From a phage: a stretch of DNA of 64,000 nt. Positions 30,039-37,655 of this stretch are shown here, piece by piece (positions within the stretch are counted from its first letter, which is position 1; the number at the start of each line of letters is the position of its first letter). The position numbers and the translations under genes are program-made. The notes under the pieces are model-generated. The model was not told where the DNA came from and made no database searches. It worked only from the letters and a program-made list of their open reading frames with translations. The stretch is from NCBI GenBank assembly GCA_012439925.1, contig GCA_012439925.1_4519.1; one strand, 5' to 3'.

Positions 30039-30350
30039 ATGGTTTATGTATATGCAATAGTTTATCGAGATATGGAAGGATTTACTGTCCCGGTTCCACT
30101 TGATGAGCATCGTCCTGCAGTATTTTTTAGAAAGGATATTGCAGATAAAGTTTTCGATACTTTGAAAACACAGTATAAAACAGATTTAAAAATGGGAGTT
30201 CTAAGAATGGTCGAAACTCCGCGTAAGTTCTGGTTTAATAAGCTTGAAATGAAACACGTTAAACTAGATGCGGAGACGCAAAGATTATATCAACGAATCC
30301 TGGACACAGGCCGTATTGTTAGTATTCCAATTGCAGGGACTTTACGATGA
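30039..30350 (+). CDS. Hypothetical protein (dda.1 position)
   Basis: ATG 2 nt after the previous stop; ATGA overlap with dda. Confidence 0.45.
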   Translation: MVYVYAIVYRDMEGFTVPVPLDEHRPAVFFRKDIADKVFDTLKTQYKTDLKMGVLRMVETPRKFWFNKLEMKHVKLDAETQRLYQRILDTGRIVSIPIAGTLR

Positions 30351-31660
30351 CATTTGATGATTTGACCGAAGGCCAGAAAAACGCCTTCAACGTTGTTATG
30401 AAAGCTATTAAAGAAAAGAAACATCACGTAACTATTAATGGGCCTGCCGGTACAGGTAAAACAACCCTTACTAGATTCATCGTTGAAGCCCTTATTTCTT
30501 CTGGAGAATCAGGTATTATTTTAGCAGCCCCTACACACGCTGCTAAAAAGGTTCTAAGCAAACTTGCAGGTCAAGAAGCATCGACTATTCATAGCATTCT
30601 TAAAATCAACCCAACTACATACGAAGAAAACGTGTTATTTGAACAGAAAAAGGTTCCCGACTTAGCCTTGTGTCGTGTACTGTTATTTGATGAAGCGTCA
30701 ATGTGCGACCGTCCTCTGTTTAAAATAATGTTAGCTAGTATCCCTAAATGGTGTACAGTAATTGGAATTGGCGACCGATGTCAGATTCGACCGGTAGACC
30801 CAGGCGAATCCACTGCGTATCTAAGTCCTTTCTTCACACACAAAGACTTCGTGCAATGCAACCTTACAGAAGTTAAACGTAGCAATGCGCCAATTATTGA
30901 TGTTGCGACTGATATTCGTAACGGCAAATGGATTTACGATAAAGTAGTTGATGGGCACGGTGTTCATGGATATACAGACCTTAAATCGTATATGATGAAC
31001 TATTTTAATGTCGTTAAAACTCCTGAAGACCTTTTCGAAAATCGAATGATGGCATTCACAAATAAGTCGGTGGACAAGTTAAATTCAATTATTCGCCGAA
31101 AACTTCTTGAAACAGAAAAACCATTTATTAAAGACGAAGTCATTGTTCTACAAGAGCCGTTTACCAAGACATATAAGCTAGATGGCAAAAATATGACCGA
31201 AATGCTTTTCAATAACGGGCAGTTCGTTCGTATTCGAGACGCTGTAGAAACGTCTACATTCGTTAAAGCACGTGGTGTTTCAGGCGAATATATGATACGA
31301 TACTGGAATCTTACAGTAGAAACATATGGCGATGATGAAGAATACGTCCGCGAAGATATAAAGGTTATTTCTTCTGAAGAAGAGCTTTATAAATTCAATT
31401 TGTTTTTGGCTAAGACCGCAGAAACATACAAATTCTGGAATAAAGGTGGTAAAGCTCCATGGAGCGAATTCTGGGATGCTAAACGTATGTTCACTAAGGT
31501 GAAGGCACTACCAGTATCAACCTTCCATAAGGCCCAGGGTATGTCTGTTGACACGGCCTTTGTTTATACACCGTGTATCCATTATGCCGATTCAGAATTA
31601 GCTAAACAGTTATTGTATGTCGGCACAACTCGTGGCCGGTTTGACGTCCATTTTATTTGA
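30347..31660 (+). CDS. dda: DNA helicase Dda (SF1)
   Basis: Walker A GPAGTGKTT, LLFDEASM Walker B; 437 aa. Confidence 0.85.
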   Translation: MTFDDLTEGQKNAFNVVMKAIKEKKHHVTINGPAGTGKTTLTRFIVEALISSGESGIILAAPTHAAKKVLSKLAGQEASTIHSILKINPTTYEENVLFEQKKVPDLALCRVLLFDEASMCDRPLFKIMLASIPKWCTVIGIGDRCQIRPVDPGESTAYLSPFFTHKDFVQCNLTEVKRSNAPIIDVATDIRNGKWIYDKVVDGHGVHGYTDLKSYMMNYFNVVKTPEDLFENRMMAFTNKSVDKLNSIIRRKLLETEKPFIKDEVIVLQEPFTKTYKLDGKNMTEMLFNNGQFVRIRDAVETSTFVKARGVSGEYMIRYWNLTVETYGDDEEYVREDIKVISSEEELYKFNLFLAKTAETYKFWNKGGKAPWSEFWDAKRMFTKVKALPVSTFHKAQGMSVDTAFVYTPCIHYADSELAKQLLYVGTTRGRFDVHFI

Positions 31661-31669
31661 GAGAAAATT

Positions 31670-32347
31670 ATGAGCACTGATGTTATTATAGATTTTGAAA
31701 CATTCGGCAATACATCAAAAGCGGCTGTTATTGACCTTGCGGTTATTGCATATAATTCCGACCCTGAAGTTGTTGAATCATTTGAAGAACTTGTTCAACG
31801 AGGTAAGCGAATTAAATTTAATTTAGCTTCTCAGAAAGGGAAGCGAGTTTTCGCTAAATCCACTATGAAATGGTGGAAAGAACAATCGGCTGAAGCGCGT
31901 AAAAACTTGGCTCCGTCTGAAGACGATGTCACTACGCTTGAAGGCATTAAAATCTTTTTAGATTATTGTCGAGCTAATAAAGTTGACCAATGGAAATCAC
32001 AGATGTGGTGCCGTGGTATGAGCTTTGACTTCCCGATCTTGGTCGATTTGATTCGTGACCTCTATCGTGATGAAGGTGTTCTTGAACCAGATATTGATAC
32101 TGATAAATTAGAACCGGTTAAATTCTGGGCTCAACGCGATATTCGTACGGCAATCGAAGCTTACTCGTTGACACGAGGATTAAGTATGTGTCCATTACCG
32201 ATGGGTACGCTGAAAGGATTCGTTGCCCATGATAGTATTCACGATTGTGCTAAAGATATTTTGATGTTAAAATATGCTCAGCGTTATGCGCTTGGCCTTG
32301 AAGATGTCCCTGAGAATCCTGACCCGATAAGTGTAAAACAGCGATAA
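31670..32347 (+). CDS. dexA: Exonuclease A DexA (DEDD family)
   Basis: IIDFETFG exo motif I and the conserved C-terminal HDSIHDCAKDILM; matches remembered T4 DexA. Confidence 0.8.
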   Translation: MSTDVIIDFETFGNTSKAAVIDLAVIAYNSDPEVVESFEELVQRGKRIKFNLASQKGKRVFAKSTMKWWKEQSAEARKNLAPSEDDVTTLEGIKIFLDYCRANKVDQWKSQMWCRGMSFDFPILVDLIRDLYRDEGVLEPDIDTDKLEPVKFWAQRDIRTAIEAYSLTRGLSMCPLPMGTLKGFVAHDSIHDCAKDILMLKYAQRYALGLEDVPENPDPISVKQR

Positions 32348-32352
32348 AATCA

Positions 32353-32392
32353 GTTTACAACCAAGGATGGTTGGAGTATAATCTTTCTATCT
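32353..32392 (+). promoter_or_regulatory. Early promoter
   Basis: GTTTACA, 17 nt, TATAAT. Confidence 0.55.
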
Positions 32393-32413
32393 TAACCAAA
32401 CAGGAAAAACATT

Positions 32414-32908
32414 ATGAATATCAATACTACGGCTACTTACATCCTGAAAGACGAAAAACAAATCAACTGGTACAGTGCTTCAGTGCGAGCTTACGAAAAG
32501 TTTTGTGAAATTTTAGGTGCCACTCAAGGCAATAGTTTCACTATTGTTAACTTCATCAAACAAGCTGAAGGCCCTTGGTTATTCTTAGAAATTAAAAATT
32601 CATATGGTACAATTTCTACTACCGCCCTTCCAAGCACAGACTTTGAACTGTTGATTGAAGAAGTAGAACCCGTTAAAGACATCTGTATTGATATGGATAT
32701 CGCTTGTATGTACGGTACTCTGATTAAGCCTATTGAGCCTACTGATTTGTTGTGTAAATATGTTTCAATTCGACGTCCGTTCGCAGGTCCAGTAAATGGA
32801 TGGGTAACTGACCAGTGGATTGAAGACGGTGTTGAACTTCTGAACGTTGTTCATGCAGGTGATTTTAGTGTAGTTCCACGTAGTGCTGTGGTTAATATCC
32901 TTAATTAA
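32414..32908 (+). CDS. Hypothetical protein, paralog family member 1
   Basis: Shares a C-terminal domain (GWVTDQWIEDGVELLNVVHAGDFSVV) with the next two genes. Confidence 0.5.
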   Translation: MNINTTATYILKDEKQINWYSASVRAYEKFCEILGATQGNSFTIVNFIKQAEGPWLFLEIKNSYGTISTTALPSTDFELLIEEVEPVKDICIDMDIACMYGTLIKPIEPTDLLCKYVSIRRPFAGPVNGWVTDQWIEDGVELLNVVHAGDFSVVPRSAVVNILN

Positions 32909-32950
32909 TGTTGTATATCCAAGGATGGATGGAGTATAATGAATTCAATT
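32909..32950 (+). promoter_or_regulatory. Early promoter (near-duplicate of the 32353 promoter)
   Basis: TTGTATATCCAAGGATGGATGGAGTATAAT versus GTTTACAACCAAGGATGGTTGGAGTATAAT. Confidence 0.45.
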
Positions 32951-32970
32951 TAAACAAAGAGAGAGAAATT

Positions 32971-33456
32971 ATGAATCTTGGTATTATTGGTGAAATCGTT
33001 CGCGTATCTAACAAATCTCGTTCTAAAGCCGCAGGAAAATTGGTCGAAGTTGTAAGTATTCAACTTAAAGAAGGCGTTAAAGATGAAGATTCTGAGGTAA
33101 AAGTTCGTATTATTCCTAGTTTTGGGACACAGGAAACCAAATTTGCTTATGTTCGTGCAAAGTTCTTGGAAACGCCTGTGAGTAGTGCTTTTGCTTCAAG
33201 AGAAAAAGTTGAATCCACAGAGCATAATGTACAGTTCAAATGGGCCCTTTGCAAAGGCGTTGAATTCCAGACTGATAAAGAATTTGACTTCATCGATGAA
33301 TACGGTTATCCAAGCAAAACTGATACTATGTGTGGCTTCATTAGTGACCAATGGGTTGAAGATGGTGAAAAGTTATACAATATCGTATTCTTAGGTGACT
33401 TCAGAGTTGTTAAAGAATCCGAAATCACTCGTTATGTGTCTCCTCGTAAAGCTTAA
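32971..33456 (+). CDS. Hypothetical protein, paralog family member 2
   Basis: Start placed after the internal promoter; GFISDQWVEDGEKLYNIVFLGDFRVV. Confidence 0.5.
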   Translation: MNLGIIGEIVRVSNKSRSKAAGKLVEVVSIQLKEGVKDEDSEVKVRIIPSFGTQETKFAYVRAKFLETPVSSAFASREKVESTEHNVQFKWALCKGVEFQTDKEFDFIDEYGYPSKTDTMCGFISDQWVEDGEKLYNIVFLGDFRVVKESEITRYVSPRKA

Positions 33457-33465
33457 GGAATTATT

Positions 33466-33885
33466 ATGAATATTGCAAATCTCTCTATTGGTGATTATGT
33501 ACACGTATCAGATGCTTCTCGCTCTAAAGTTGCTGGTAAGTTGGTTGAAGTTCTTTATGTAAGTGATCCGGTTTTTGGTCGCAATGAAGTTAAAGTTCGT
33601 GATGCTGATGGCAACATTGGTTATGTTAAAAGCCAATTCATTGAACCGGAAGAAAAATCGTTCAAATGGGGACTATGCAGATCAGTTTCTGTTGAAAAAG
33701 ACCATGAATTCACTATTGCTGCGGCAACTGATGGAACACCATGGAAAACTAAGCAAATCGCTGGATTTATTAGCGACCGTTGGGTAGAAGATGGTGTTAA
33801 GCTTTATAACATCGTTTTCGCTGGACAGTTCATGGTAGTTCCTGAATTCCAAATTAAAAAATATAGCCCGGCTGCTTTCGCATAA
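33466..33885 (+). CDS. Hypothetical protein, paralog family member 3
   Basis: GFISDRWVEDGVKLYNIVFAGQFMVV; the N-terminus is also similar to member 2. Confidence 0.5.
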   Translation: MNIANLSIGDYVHVSDASRSKVAGKLVEVLYVSDPVFGRNEVKVRDADGNIGYVKSQFIEPEEKSFKWGLCRSVSVEKDHEFTIAAATDGTPWKTKQIAGFISDRWVEDGVKLYNIVFAGQFMVVPEFQIKKYSPAAFA

Positions 33886-33888
33886 AGT

Positions 33889-33931
33889 TGTTTACTTCTC
33901 CTCTGGTTTTGATATTATAACCATATCAACC
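33889..33931 (+). promoter_or_regulatory. Early promoter cassette (PeSL-like)
   Basis: GTTTACTTCTCCTCTGGTTTTGATATTATAACCATATCAACCAGAGGAG; inverted repeat CCTCTGG/CCAGAGG flanks the -10; near-copy of the 20961 cassette. Confidence 0.55.
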
Positions 33932-33944
33932 AGAGGAGAATAAT

Positions 33945-34469
33945 ATGTTAGTTTACCGCGTAGAACGTAGTTTTTGTACTCAACGTGAATCATTACCAGG
34001 AATTGCCATCGAAGACGGTAAAGCCGTCAGAATTTGGGAAACCTCTTGGAATAAAGAACCTCGCTCACCTTACGGTTGGTCTGGCACTGACAACTCTGAA
34101 GAAACATGGGAGTTCCTTGATAAACATGGAATACTCTCAGGTAACTTCTACCATCACGGCGACAACTATAATGTCCCTAATCGTCCTACAGTAAATGAAG
34201 ACAAACTCCTTGAACAAAATATCTTAAGATACCATAGAATTGAGCACACATTTGAATTGAACAAAGATTGGGCTCAAGAGTTCTATTTTGGATTTGAAAG
34301 TGTTGACGCGGTTTATGCATGGTTTGATGACCAGGTGGATGTTGAACTCTTGAAAGCTAAAGGATACTACATCGCGGTCTATGAAGCACCTGATTTCATA
34401 CTCGGAAGTTGTCAATTAATGTTTAGACGTTCATTGGCAGAACAAGTTGATTTTATTTTGCTAAAATGA
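33945..34469 (+). CDS. Hypothetical protein
   Basis: ATG ORF of 174 aa. Confidence 0.5.
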   Translation: MLVYRVERSFCTQRESLPGIAIEDGKAVRIWETSWNKEPRSPYGWSGTDNSEETWEFLDKHGILSGNFYHHGDNYNVPNRPTVNEDKLLEQNILRYHRIEHTFELNKDWAQEFYFGFESVDAVYAWFDDQVDVELLKAKGYYIAVYEAPDFILGSCQLMFRRSLAEQVDFILLK

Positions 34470-34510
34470 TGTACAACAACTATGGTCTATGATACTATAG
34501 ACCTATCAAA
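34470..34510 (+). promoter_or_regulatory. Early promoter cassette (PeSL-like)
   Basis: TGTACAA ... TACTATAGACCTATCAA; inverted repeat GGTCTAT/ATAGACC. Confidence 0.45.
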
Positions 34511-34526
34511 ACAAGAGGAGAATATT

Positions 34527-34754
34527 ATGAAACGTCAAATCATTAAAAACGTAACTACTGATTCAAACATCGATGAGTTTGAAGATGTTCTGTTTAATCC
34601 TGATTTAGTTGTTGTACAGAAAAACTGGACCGAATTTTTATGCTACACCGAAGTGGTTTACGTTTACGAAAAACTTGGCGATGAAATGCCTATCTACGGT
34701 ATCTTCCGTGAAATCACTGAAAACGGTACAACTTATTGGAAGGAAACTTACTAA
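34527..34754 (+). CDS. Hypothetical protein
   Basis: ATG after AGAGGAG, downstream of the promoter. Confidence 0.45.
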
Positions 34755-35164
34755 TGGCTAATAAATTCCGCGTTAACTCATGGTACCAATTTAAAGATAA
34801 ACGTGCCCAAGAAGAGTTTATTAAGGACCACACCGATAATGGGATTTATGCACGACGTCTTGGCATGGAACCATTTAAAGTATTAGATGTTGACCATCTT
34901 GGTCGTCCTACTAAAATTGTGACATCTACTGGCATGGTTGGATACGCAACAGGCGGTGATATTCTTGATGAAAACTTTATCTGGCTCTCCACGAATGAAG
35001 CAGAGTTCTTTGACGAAGTTGGAAATCCATATCAAGCGTCTGAAGAGCAAGACTCTGGAGAACTTGATGAATTGTCTGAATTTCCGGTGATGACGATTAC
35101 TATCAAAAATAACGACCAGGCATGGTCGTTGTATCAAATGTTGAAAGCACATTTTAAGGAATAA
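34754..35164 (+). CDS. Hypothetical protein
   Basis: TAATG overlap with the previous gene. Confidence 0.45.
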
Positions 35165-35166
35165 TA

Positions 35167-35346
35167 ATGCCGTTATACGACTATAAATGCCAATCTGAAG
35201 ATTGTGGTCATGAATATGAAAAAATTAAAAGGATTTCTGAACGAGAAAACGATGTTTGCCCTGAATGTCATTGTCTGTCTACTCGTCGGGTTTCTGCTCC
35301 TAAACATGTGAACGGTGGTTTTTACGACTTACTTAAAAAGGGTTAA
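35167..35346 (+). CDS. Zinc-ribbon small protein (FmdB-like CxxC ... CxxC)
   Basis: MPLYDYKCQSEDCGHEYE ... CPECH; 59 aa; below the ORF-track cutoff. Confidence 0.45.
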   Translation: MPLYDYKCQSEDCGHEYEKIKRISERENDVCPECHCLSTRRVSAPKHVNGGFYDLLKKG

Positions 35347-35348
35347 TT

Positions 35349-35774
35349 ATGGCTTTTAAAGGTTTTGAAGTTGGTAAGAAATATCATATTATCAAAGGTC
35401 AAGAAGATAATTTCTTGAGAATTCTTAATACGACTGGTAAACGTCTTAATACTAATCTGCATACTACTTTATTGTCCAAAGATTTTATTGTGGAAGAGAT
35501 GATTGGTTACGGTGTTTCGGTTATTGCTGTAGAAGCCGTAGGCGATTATGGCCGAACTATTCATAGTATGCAAGGTGATATTCTGCTTTATGGTGCAGAA
35601 TTTAAATTCTTTGAAGAAGTTCAGGAACCAGATACAGCTGTCGATTTCAAAAAAGGCTCTATAGAATTTGTTGATGGTTCGGTGATCGTATCAGGCGATG
35701 TGGTCATTACAGTTAAAAGTGAACAAGGGCGTTTGGCTGCAATTGATGCACTTCAGAAAATTAAATTTAAATAA
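35349..35774 (+). CDS. Hypothetical protein
   Basis: ATG ORF of 141 aa ending at a terminator. Confidence 0.5.
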   Translation: MAFKGFEVGKKYHIIKGQEDNFLRILNTTGKRLNTNLHTTLLSKDFIVEEMIGYGVSVIAVEAVGDYGRTIHSMQGDILLYGAEFKFFEEVQEPDTAVDFKKGSIEFVDGSVIVSGDVVITVKSEQGRLAAIDALQKIKFK

Positions 35775-35837: not shown

Positions 35838-37655
35838 ATGATTAAAAATGAAATTAAGGTATTGTCAGATGTAGAACATATTAAGAAACGTAGTGGTATG
35901 TATATTGGTTCTTCTGCTAAAGAAGCCCACGAGCGTTTTTTGTTTGGTAAATATCAACAAGTTGAATATGTTCCTGGTCTGGTTAAATTAATCGATGAGA
36001 TTATTGACAACTCGGTTGATGAAGCTATTCGTACATCATTTAAGTTTGCAAATAAAATTGATGTGCAAATTAAAAATAATCAAGTTTCGGTGGAAGATAA
36101 CGGACGTGGTATTCCTCAAGGTTTAGTTACCGACCAAACAGGTGAACAAATTCCTGGGCCTGTAGCAGCCTGGACTATTCCAAAGGCCGGTGGTAACTTT
36201 GGCGATGACTCTGAACGCAAGACTGGTGGTATGAACGGCGTCGGGAGTAGTTTAACTAATATCTTCTCCACGTTGTTTACAGGCATCACGTCAGATGGTG
36301 AAAATGAAATCACTGTTAACTGTTCAAACGGAATGGAAAACAAATCATGGTCTTCTAAGAAATCTAAAGGTAAAGGCACTAAAGTAATCTTCACTCCTGA
36401 TTTCACTTCATTTGAAGAGCATAATTTATCTCAAATTTATTTAGATATTACTTTAGACCGACTTCAAACATTGGCAGTCGTTTATCCTGATATCAAGTTC
36501 ACATTTAATGGTAAAAAGGTTGATGGTAATTTTAAACGATTTGCTAAACAATTTGGTGAAGATAACATCATTCAAGAAAATGATAAAGTCTCTATAGCAT
36601 TCACAACATCACCAGATGGCTTCCGTCATTTAACTTATGTGAATAACATCCATACTAAAAATGGTGGTCATCATGTTGAATGTGTAATGGATGATATCTG
36701 CGAACATCTTTTGCCCGGTATTAAAAAGAAATATAAGGGTATTGAAGTCACTAAAGCTCGTGTTAAAGAATGTCTCACAATGTTGATGTTTATTAGAGAC
36801 ATGAGCAACATGCGTTTTGATTCTCAGACTAAAGAACGTTTAACGTCAACGTATGGTGATATTCGTAATCATATCCAATTAGATGCTAAGAAAATTGCTC
36901 AGGCGCTTCTTAAAAACGAAGCCTTGATTATGCCTATTGTTGAAGCAGCATTAGCTCGTAAATTGGCGGCAGAAAAGGCTGCAGAAACTAAAGCAGCTAA
37001 AAAGGCAACTAAAGCTAAGGTTCATAAGCATATTAAAGCTAACCAATGTGGTAAAGATGCAGATACGACATTGTTCTTAACAGAAGGTGATTCGGCAATT
37101 GGATATCTCATTGATGTTCGTGACCGTGAACTACACGGTGGATTCCCATTACGTGGTAAGGTGATGAATAGCTGGGGTATGTCATATGCTGATATGATGA
37201 AGAACAAAGAGCTCTTTGATATCTGTGCTATCACAGGTCTTATTCTTGGTGAAAAGGCAGAGAATACGAACTATCGTAATATTGCAATTATGACTGATGC
37301 CGATCATGACGGCCTTGGAAGTATTTATCCTGCTTTGCTTGCTTTCTTTAGTAATTGGCCTGAATTGTTTGAACAAGGACGTATTCGCTTTGTTAAAACA
37401 CCTGTAATTATTGCACAAATTGGCAAAACTCAAAAATGGTTTTATACTGTAGCTGAGTATGAAGAAGTTAAAGATACGCTGCCTAAGCATAGTATTCGAT
37501 ACATCAAGGGATTAGGCTCCCTTGAAAAGTCAGAGTATCGTGAAATGATTCAGAACCCTGTGTACGACGTAGTTAAACTTCCTGAAAATTGGAAAGAACT
37601 CTTTGAAATGTTGTTGGGTGATGATTCAGAACTTCGTAAAGAATGGATGTCCTAA
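35838..37655 (+). CDS. 39: Topoisomerase II large subunit gp39 (39+60 fused, GyrB-like)
   Basis: GHKL ATPase motif (EDNGRGIP) and toprim (EGDSA, DADHDG); a single 605-aa ORF, so no separate gene 60. Confidence 0.9.
   Translation: MIKNEIKVLSDVEHIKKRSGMYIGSSAKEAHERFLFGKYQQVEYVPGLVKLIDEIIDNSVDEAIRTSFKFANKIDVQIKNNQVSVEDNGRGIPQGLVTDQTGEQIPGPVAAWTIPKAGGNFGDDSERKTGGMNGVGSSLTNIFSTLFTGITSDGENEITVNCSNGMENKSWSSKKSKGKGTKVIFTPDFTSFEEHNLSQIYLDITLDRLQTLAVVYPDIKFTFNGKKVDGNFKRFAKQFGEDNIIQENDKVSIAFTTSPDGFRHLTYVNNIHTKNGGHHVECVMDDICEHLLPGIKKKYKGIEVTKARVKECLTMLMFIRDMSNMRFDSQTKERLTSTYGDIRNHIQLDAKKIAQALLKNEALIMPIVEAALARKLAAEKAAETKAAKKATKAKVHKHIKANQCGKDADTTLFLTEGDSAIGYLIDVRDRELHGGFPLRGKVMNSWGMSYADMMKNKELFDICAITGLILGEKAENTNYRNIAIMTDADHDGLGSIYPALLAFFSNWPELFEQGRIRFVKTPVIIAQIGKTQKWFYTVAEYEEVKDTLPKHSIRYIKGLGSLEKSEYREMIQNPVYDVVKLPENWKELFEMLLGDDSELRKEWMS

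Follow-up and report, generated by a model that had tools for sequence, protein, structure and literature searches.

A motB.1, motB and second motB block of probably old paralogs, and its repeated early promoter, in an RB69-like T4-type phage

The 64,000-nucleotide stretch of phage DNA analysed here (GenBank contig GCA_012439925.1_4519.1, called the window below) carries, between dexA and gene 39, three consecutive plus-strand open reading frames, ORF1 (32414–32908), ORF2 (32971–33456) and ORF3 (33466–33885), that share a C-terminal domain, and the promoter in front of ORF2 resembles the one in front of ORF1. The initial annotation read this arrangement as recent cassette duplication followed by divergence, so the locus raises the question of whether its repeated domain and repeated promoter do record such an event. 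We find that the block is very probably the motB.1, motB and second motB set of an RB69-like (Mosigvirus) T4-type phage, made up of old paralogs and not of recent duplicates. The system itself is already known, its paralogy, its RB69-type gene count and promoter-mediated shuffling all having been published. MotB and MotB.1 were reported in 2021 to have a conserved C-terminal domain and differing N-terminal domains, it was proposed that duplication of one of the two genes may have given the other, and phage RB69 was described as having two motB genes, one motB.1 gene and a 29 amino acid peptide (PMC7827196).

The window is 98.8% identical in nucleotide sequence to Shigella phage Shf125875, a Mosigvirus of the RB69-like Tevenvirinae. 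The three genes are named motB.1, MotB and MotB-like in public annotation, and motB.1, motB and RB69ORF010c "similar to motB" in that of RB69. The Pfam motB family (PF17613, curated cut-off 25 bits) matches the 161 amino acid ORF2 protein over its full length (182 bits, E=9.4e-54, hidden Markov model [HMM] positions 5–157 of 162), and likewise the 139 amino acid ORF3 protein (81.5 bits, E=8.1e-23, HMM positions 3–162 of 162). ORF2 is 58% identical to T4 MotB (E=1e-59), and ORF3 is 39% identical to T4 MotB and 98.6% identical to its ortholog RB69ORF010c; PHROGs places both with the "MotB-like transcriptional regulator". The 164 amino acid ORF1 protein also scores above the Pfam cut-off (35.3 bits, E=1.3e-8), but only its residues 84–159 are aligned, to HMM positions 78–153, so by profile comparison it has the MotB C-domain in common and yet is not a MotB ortholog. 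Its full-length match is to phrog_2333 (E=1.3e-82), the "Category 2" family of PMC7827196, and it is 37% identical to T4 MotB.1 (E=1.6e-26). The two-domain MotB plan, a KOW-like N-domain (SRSKAAGKLVEV) and a C-terminal barrel, is found in ORF2 and ORF3 and not in ORF1, which has the LSm-/SH3-like N-terminal beta-domain followed by the C-domain (DPTDLLCK...GWVTDQWIEDGVELLNVVHAG) of the MotB.1 family. The start of ORF2 is most likely the ATG at 32971, since its homologs and the ribosome-binding site AAAGAGAGAGA indicate this codon; the ATG of the longest frame (32908) and that of the public 175 amino acid annotation (32929) lie upstream of or within the second promoter. The function, given as unknown in the initial annotation, is partly known for T4 MotB, the ortholog of ORF2, which has been studied as a DNA-binding protein that alters the binding of H-NS (PMC6070864, PMC7827196).

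The paralogy of the three proteins is real. In BLASTP comparisons ORF2 and ORF3 are 42% identical over 154 columns (E=7e-31), an alignment that includes the shared N-terminal stretch SRSK(A/V)AGKLVEV, ORF1 and ORF2 are identical at 16 of 36 positions of the C-terminal motif (E=3e-10), and ORF1 and ORF3 align with E=9e-11; the shared motifs that had been noticed by eye are therefore statistically significant. No fourth C-module turned up in a six-frame search of the 64-kb window, in which the "29 amino acid peptide" of RB69 was also sought. Divergence at synonymous sites (dS) between ORF2 and ORF3 is saturated at 1.29, with a nonsynonymous divergence (dN) of 0.51; a dN/dS ratio between paralogs, which had been proposed as a check, was calculated and is uninformative at such saturation, and comparison of the window with the orthologs of five or six relatives (Shf125875, RB69, PhAPEC2, JS09, SF and teqhad) by the Nei-Gojobori method was used in its place. 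The ortholog dN/dS is 0.14 for ORF1, 0.21 for ORF2 and 0.15 for ORF3, beside 0.15–0.17 for goF and 0.05 for dexA. ORF3 is about equally distant from ORF2 (42% identity) and from T4 MotB (39%); orthologs of ORF1 and ORF2 are present in T4, and teqhad, a Tequatrovirus, has that of ORF3 in addition. Since dS is saturated and orthologs are present in T4 and teqhad, the duplication is, by these divergences, old, and by their dN/dS all three copies are kept under purifying selection. ORF3 has a bimodal distribution: about 208 phage records, among them some Tequatroviruses including teqhad, contain an ortholog of at least 80% identity, and about 550 contain motB alone. We note that in teqhad (positions 1151–2620) the identity to the window is 96% for motB.1 (ORF1) and 86% for the second motB (ORF3), whereas its dexA (67%), cef (65%) and goF (75%) are far more divergent from the window; this suggests that part of the block has moved between the Mosigvirus and Tequatrovirus lineages. 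Gene order in teqhad is that of T4, with motB.2 first.

AlphaFold2 models built with family alignments give ORF1 and ORF2 the same general plan, an N-terminal beta-domain, a disordered linker and a five-stranded C-domain, the last with predicted local distance difference test (pLDDT) values above 90 (about 90 in ORF1). The ORF1 N-domain, with five strands and a helix, corresponds to the published LSm-like fold, and the ORF1 linker comprises residues 86–108; ORF2 has a basic KOW-like N-domain, a linker at residues 70–85 and an acidic C-terminal barrel, and ORF3 has the two-domain MotB plan with most of the linker missing. In 37 diverse homologs the MotB.1-type C-module (DPTDLLCK..IRRPF..GWVTDQWIEDGVELLNVVHAGDFSVVPRS) hardly varies. 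It is joined, at 74–88% identity, to N-terminal parts of at least four different architectures, which are LSm-like, KOW-like or tandem LSm-like or belong to forms of about 180 and about 250 amino acids. The ORF1 linker includes the motif DMDIACMYGTLIKP (residues ~93–106, window ~32690–32731), which in the ~180 and ~250 amino acid relatives stands at or near the N-terminus, ahead of the N-domain. T4 MotB.1 lacks this motif, which may be a mobile linear element. Sequence searches of solved structures gave no match beyond a chance hit (E=0.52), and a search of a viral fold library returned family members only. The N-terminal parts of MotB proteins are basic (isoelectric point [pI] 9–10.4), while the C-domain is acidic (pI 4.5–4.7) in ORF1, ORF2 and RB69 MotB and basic in T4 MotB (8.6) and ORF3 (8.1). 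The domain charges of ORF2 are the reverse of those of ORF3, with pI 9.1 for the N-part and 4.7 for the C-part of ORF2 and 5.2 and 8.1 for those of ORF3, which in co-transcribed genes would be compatible with heteromeric pairing.

The predicted early sigma70-type promoter of ORF1, P1 (32353–32382, plus strand), is the best promoter match of the region, with 11 of 12 consensus positions; its −35 sequence TTTACA (32354–32359) and −10 sequence TATAAT (32377–32382) are separated by 17 nucleotides (nt), it follows the GTTTAC-N17-TAnnAT pattern common to the early-type promoters of the window, and it is conserved in all Mosigvirus relatives examined. The second promoter, P2 (32909–32940, plus strand), lies in the position of the T4 motB promoter P(motB), GTTTACAAACTC...AGAGTATAAT, and has a perfect −10 TATAAT (32935–32940) and a degraded −35, TTGTAT in place of TTTACA. 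The 22 nt segment CCAAGGATGGTTGGAGTATAAT of P1 (32361–32382) recurs in P2 (32919–32940) with one mismatch, and no further site in the window matches it with up to three mismatches, 0 being expected by chance. In the 15 further early-type promoter matches on the plus strand of the window the spacer is unrelated, so the likeness of P1 and P2 exceeds the early-promoter consensus. The view that the second promoter is a near-copy of the first therefore holds for the repeated 22 nt and fails at the −35. ORF3 has no promoter of its own and begins 9 nt after ORF2, and because these nucleotides (GGAATTATT) are invariant in all relatives examined and contain an AAGGA ribosome-binding site, ORF2 and ORF3 are likely co-transcribed. 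We infer that P1 serves ORF1, that P2 serves ORF2 and ORF3, and that a third promoter, P3 (see below), serves motB.2. Two candidate RNA features were rejected. The small spacer hairpins AACCA-AGGA-TGGTT of P1 and ATCCA-AGGA-TGGAT of P2 resemble a compensatory change, but they fold no better than chance (z=−0.25 and −0.11) and relatives have a non-compensated T-to-C substitution; an Rfam scan of the locus gave one Y_RNA match in ORF1 that, at 26 bits, falls short of the gathering score of 38 and is attributed to chance.

Comparison among phages gives the repeat a part in the gene content of the locus. A synthetic junction of the left side of P1 and the right side of P2 aligns in one piece to several phages. 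The two in which the empty site was read directly, JK45 and AV114, have the gene order dexA, motB, second motB, motB.2, cef, with no motB.1 N-domain within 5.2 kb, and their dexA-motB spacer consists of GTTTACAACCAAGGATGGTTGGAGTATAAT abutting GAATTCAA..AAAGAGAGA and the motB ATG, the leader part also reading GAATTCAA..AAACAAAGAGAGA..ATG. This is the P1 −35 and spacer, a single repeat copy and then the P2 leader. For the others we rely on a 60 nt empty-junction query, which aligns end to end, with at least 93% identity, to 19 records of 17 distinct phages in the phage GenBank collection; this count has some ambiguity, since in genomes that carry motB.1 P2 aligns to query positions 6–60. In IMG/VR the exact pattern had 0 matches. 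Because the empty-site junction is a P1-left/P2-right hybrid promoter, motB.1 together with one repeat copy is, on the alignments, an indel between near-identical phages that is bounded exactly by the 22 bp repeat. The second promoter appears at another junction as well. Between 32930 and 33230, from P2 through the ORF2 N-domain and linker, the window is 50–85% identical to RB69, PhAPEC2, JS09 and SF, whereas the remaining locus is mostly 95–100% identical; compared with RB69 MotB, the C-part of ORF2 is 96% and the N-part 67% identical. Since identity falls only in this interval while the ORF2 C-part remains at 96%, ORF2 is, as judged from these identities, a chimeric motB allele and P2 the left junction of an N-domain swap. 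By eye, the interval has a core segment that resembles T4 MotB.

Promoter-mediated modular shuffling by so-called promoter-early stem-loop (PeSL) cassettes has been described for T4-type hyperplastic regions (PMC4122927). In our locus an early promoter of the form TTTACW-N17-TAYWAT with a Shine-Dalgarno sequence (SD) and a start codon is found at P1 and P3, P2 having the −10 and the SD with a degraded −35, and the promoters coincide with differences between close relatives, namely the motB.1 indel at the repeat and the ORF2 swap that starts at P2. On comparison of the phages, the 22 bp promoter repeat is a substrate of recombination, and the presence or absence of motB.1 and the N-domain swap both match PeSL-like shuffling of the hyperplastic region. 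For the proteins, T4 MotB offers the best guide: it is an abundant, early, non-essential protein that covers DNA irrespective of sequence, changes the footprint of H-NS and lifts repression from part of the H-NS regulon; its over-production is toxic, and it doubles the burst size (PMC6070864, PMC7827196). By homology the activity of ORF2 is most likely the same, early non-specific DNA binding that alters H-NS on DNA, which is consistent with the host-takeover role that had been suggested. ORF3 would be a compact second version of MotB made from the same mRNA, and ORF1 would link another kind of N-domain, which may bind RNA, to the binding partner of the common C-domain; the N-domain of MotB.1 is an LSm-like barrel common to GoF and Frd.2 (PMC12152347). 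Several points weigh against parts of this reconstruction. At the level of the whole protein ORF2 (pI 5.6) and ORF3 (pI 6.1) differ from T4 MotB (pI 9.2), only the N-part of ORF2 being basic, and because they are not basic overall their DNA binding could be weaker than that of T4 MotB or differently organised. A phenotype of T4 delta-motB.1 is absent in laboratory conditions, with wild-type burst size (PMC12152347). The −35 of P2 is poor and its activity uncertain, so that ORF2 and ORF3 may be transcribed mainly from P1. Finally, the upstream stem-loop of PeSL cassettes is missing at P1 and P2 (the same z values of −0.25 and −0.11), with no terminator-like site.

Which of the two domains contacts DNA is the point on which the strongest alternative turns. 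In the literature the common C-domain is proposed to be an OB-fold or cold-shock-like domain, and it is possible, though we consider it distinctly the less probable course, that this domain is itself the DNA-binding unit and that the three proteins all coat DNA and differ only in accessory N-domains. Our models suggest that the shared C-domain is an SH3/Tudor-like barrel, acidic in most members, which would shift the likely DNA-binding role towards the N-domain; the N-domains would then make the nucleic acid contacts, and the common C-barrel would be a docking or assembly module. A fuller version can be offered only tentatively: the near-invariant C-barrel might be a portable SH3/Tudor-like docking or oligomerisation module, and not a DNA-binding OB fold, that brings exchangeable nucleic acid-binding N-domains (of the KOW-like and LSm-like types and at least two more) to a single target such as H-NS-coated DNA or the transcription complex, with mixed assemblies of ORF2 and ORF3 and, separately, a 22 bp repeat that actively excises and integrates the motB.1 cassette in present-day populations.

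Recent tandem duplication of a gene-plus-promoter cassette with rapid diversification, as in the arms-race families of anti-defence and host-takeover genes, is very unlikely. The promoter is indeed repeated almost exactly, and the locus, which lies within the plastic early region between dexA and gene 39 as the initial annotation had it, is mobile enough that the ORF2 N-domain has been swapped and motB.1 is an indel. The paralogs, however, are only 42% identical or share no more than 36 residues, their synonymous sites are saturated, and their orthologs reach T4 and teqhad, so "recent" does not describe them; nor does "diversifying" suit genes with such low ortholog dN/dS, the variation of ORF2 being an exchange of alleles with a sharp step in identity and not an acceleration of point substitution. 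The count of three cassettes gives way too, since the repeat flanks one cassette (motB.1, the indel among close relatives) and ORF2 and ORF3, the latter without a promoter copy, form one transcription unit.

That motB.1 might be a decaying or dispensable gene is suggested by its state in two reference genomes, its absence from at least two and probably about 17 close relatives, and the wild-type burst size of the T4 deletion. The T4 reference (AF158101/NC_000866) annotates a 119 amino acid MotB.1 (NP_049627, UniProt P39415), and the truncation, inside the conserved GWVTDQWIEDG motif, is due to one extra G, CAATGGATT[G]GAAGATGG, at ~4300 on its minus strand, which corresponds to window ~32822. 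Among the T4-type records listed, only the old reference has this frameshift; the extra G is missing from the 13 others (11 under the names T4 or T4T, with RB55 and RB59), and the two that were inspected, MT984581 and HM137666, encode a 143 amino acid MotB.1 with a complete MotB-type C-domain. The 2025 study of MotB.1 (PMC12152347) used GenScript-synthesised genes, cited NC_000866.4 for its amber constructs and reported a 13.8-kDa monomer, the source sequence of the expression clone being unstated, so that it probably assayed the truncated form. In the one RB69 record read (AY303349, 1182–1678, equivalent to window 32414–32908) the motB.1 frame is interrupted by two 1-nt insertions, CGTCCGTT[T]CGCAGG and GACGGT[T]GTTGAAC, which leave a "motB.1" of 132 amino acids and an "RB69ORF012c" of 29; by this alignment, the 29 amino acid peptide of "Category 3" (PMC7827196; Patterson-West 2021) is a fragment of split motB.1. 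Together with an intact gene in the window and in the related records L001 and L004–L007 (L006 is teqhad), the low dN/dS of ORF1 and a C-module nearly invariant in 37 diverse homologs, these corrections make decay a similarly improbable reading. Convergence of P1 and P2 on a strong early-promoter consensus, without common ancestry or a role in recombination, would account for the TATAAT of both in phages whose early promoters are highly stereotyped, but is refuted by a match that spans 16 nt of spacer absent from every other early-type promoter in the window, by the lack of chance matches and by an empty-site junction exactly inside the repeat.

Set beside the known systems, the old-paralog block agrees with each in part. 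Like T4 motB (Patterson-West et al. 2018, 2021), ORF2 is located upstream of cef and has the KOW-like N-domain, linker and C-barrel, and ORF3 has that architecture apart from most of the linker; unlike T4 MotB, neither is basic overall, and ORF2 is a chimeric allele. The N-terminal beta-domain of T4 MotB.1 (Kim et al. 2025) is also in ORF1, but the database form of T4 MotB.1 is without the C-domain core, whereas ORF1 has a complete C-domain and the linker motif. The genes and their order are those of RB69 (motB.1/RB69ORF012c/motB/RB69ORF010c), from which the window differs in that motB.1 is one intact ORF and that the motB N-domain is another allele. The resemblance to the PeSL cassettes (Arbiol 2010; Comeau 2014) is that small non-essential genes of the hyperplastic region stand between repeated early promoters, each followed by SD and ATG, and that these promoters fall on indel or replacement junctions between close relatives; the differences are the absence of a significant stem-loop ahead of the −35 in P1 and P2 and, at P3, a hairpin that encloses its promoter.

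The promoter P3 (TTTACT-16-TATTAT, 33891–33918, plus strand) marks the right boundary of the paralog unit and lies inside a strong hairpin (33896–33940, −23.9 kcal/mol, z=−5.4); the ribosome-binding site GAGGAG (33933–33938) of ORF4, motB.2 (33945–34469; E=2e-15 to T4 MotB.2), falls within the 3' arm of this hairpin. In folding calculations RNA begun at P3, within the hairpin loop, is unstructured, so read-through RNA would be masked for translation at the motB.2 site and P3-started RNA would be open. A comparable hairpin with another stem sequence (−23.7 kcal/mol, z=−4.5) occurs in the leader of T4 motB.2, although in T4 this gene is located elsewhere, directly after dexA. The block is preceded by dda (30347–31660) and dexA (31670–32347), and motB.2 is followed by cef (inside an ORF at 34482–34754), goF (34754–35164), 39.2 (35167–35346), an ORF005c-like gene (35349–35774) and the fused 39+60 topoisomerase gene, which starts at 35838. 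Both goF and the ORF005c-like gene match phrog_622 (E=8e-39 and E=3e-21), and the N-part of the latter has a weak match to the motB.1 family phrog_2333 (E=6e-4); from these matches the locus may hold three members with LSm-like N-domains (motB.1, goF and ORF005c) besides the three with the MotB C-domain.

The value of the locus lies in an exact cassette junction, in corrections to reference annotation and in a refined, model-based fold assignment for the shared domain. The 119 amino acid T4 MotB.1 and the 29 amino acid RB69 peptide stem from 1-nt insertions in reference records, which matters since the former is apparently the form that was assayed in 2025. For the T4-type phages, the block offers a base-precise case of a gene cassette gained or lost via a repeated early promoter, and the same promoter is also the junction of a domain swap.

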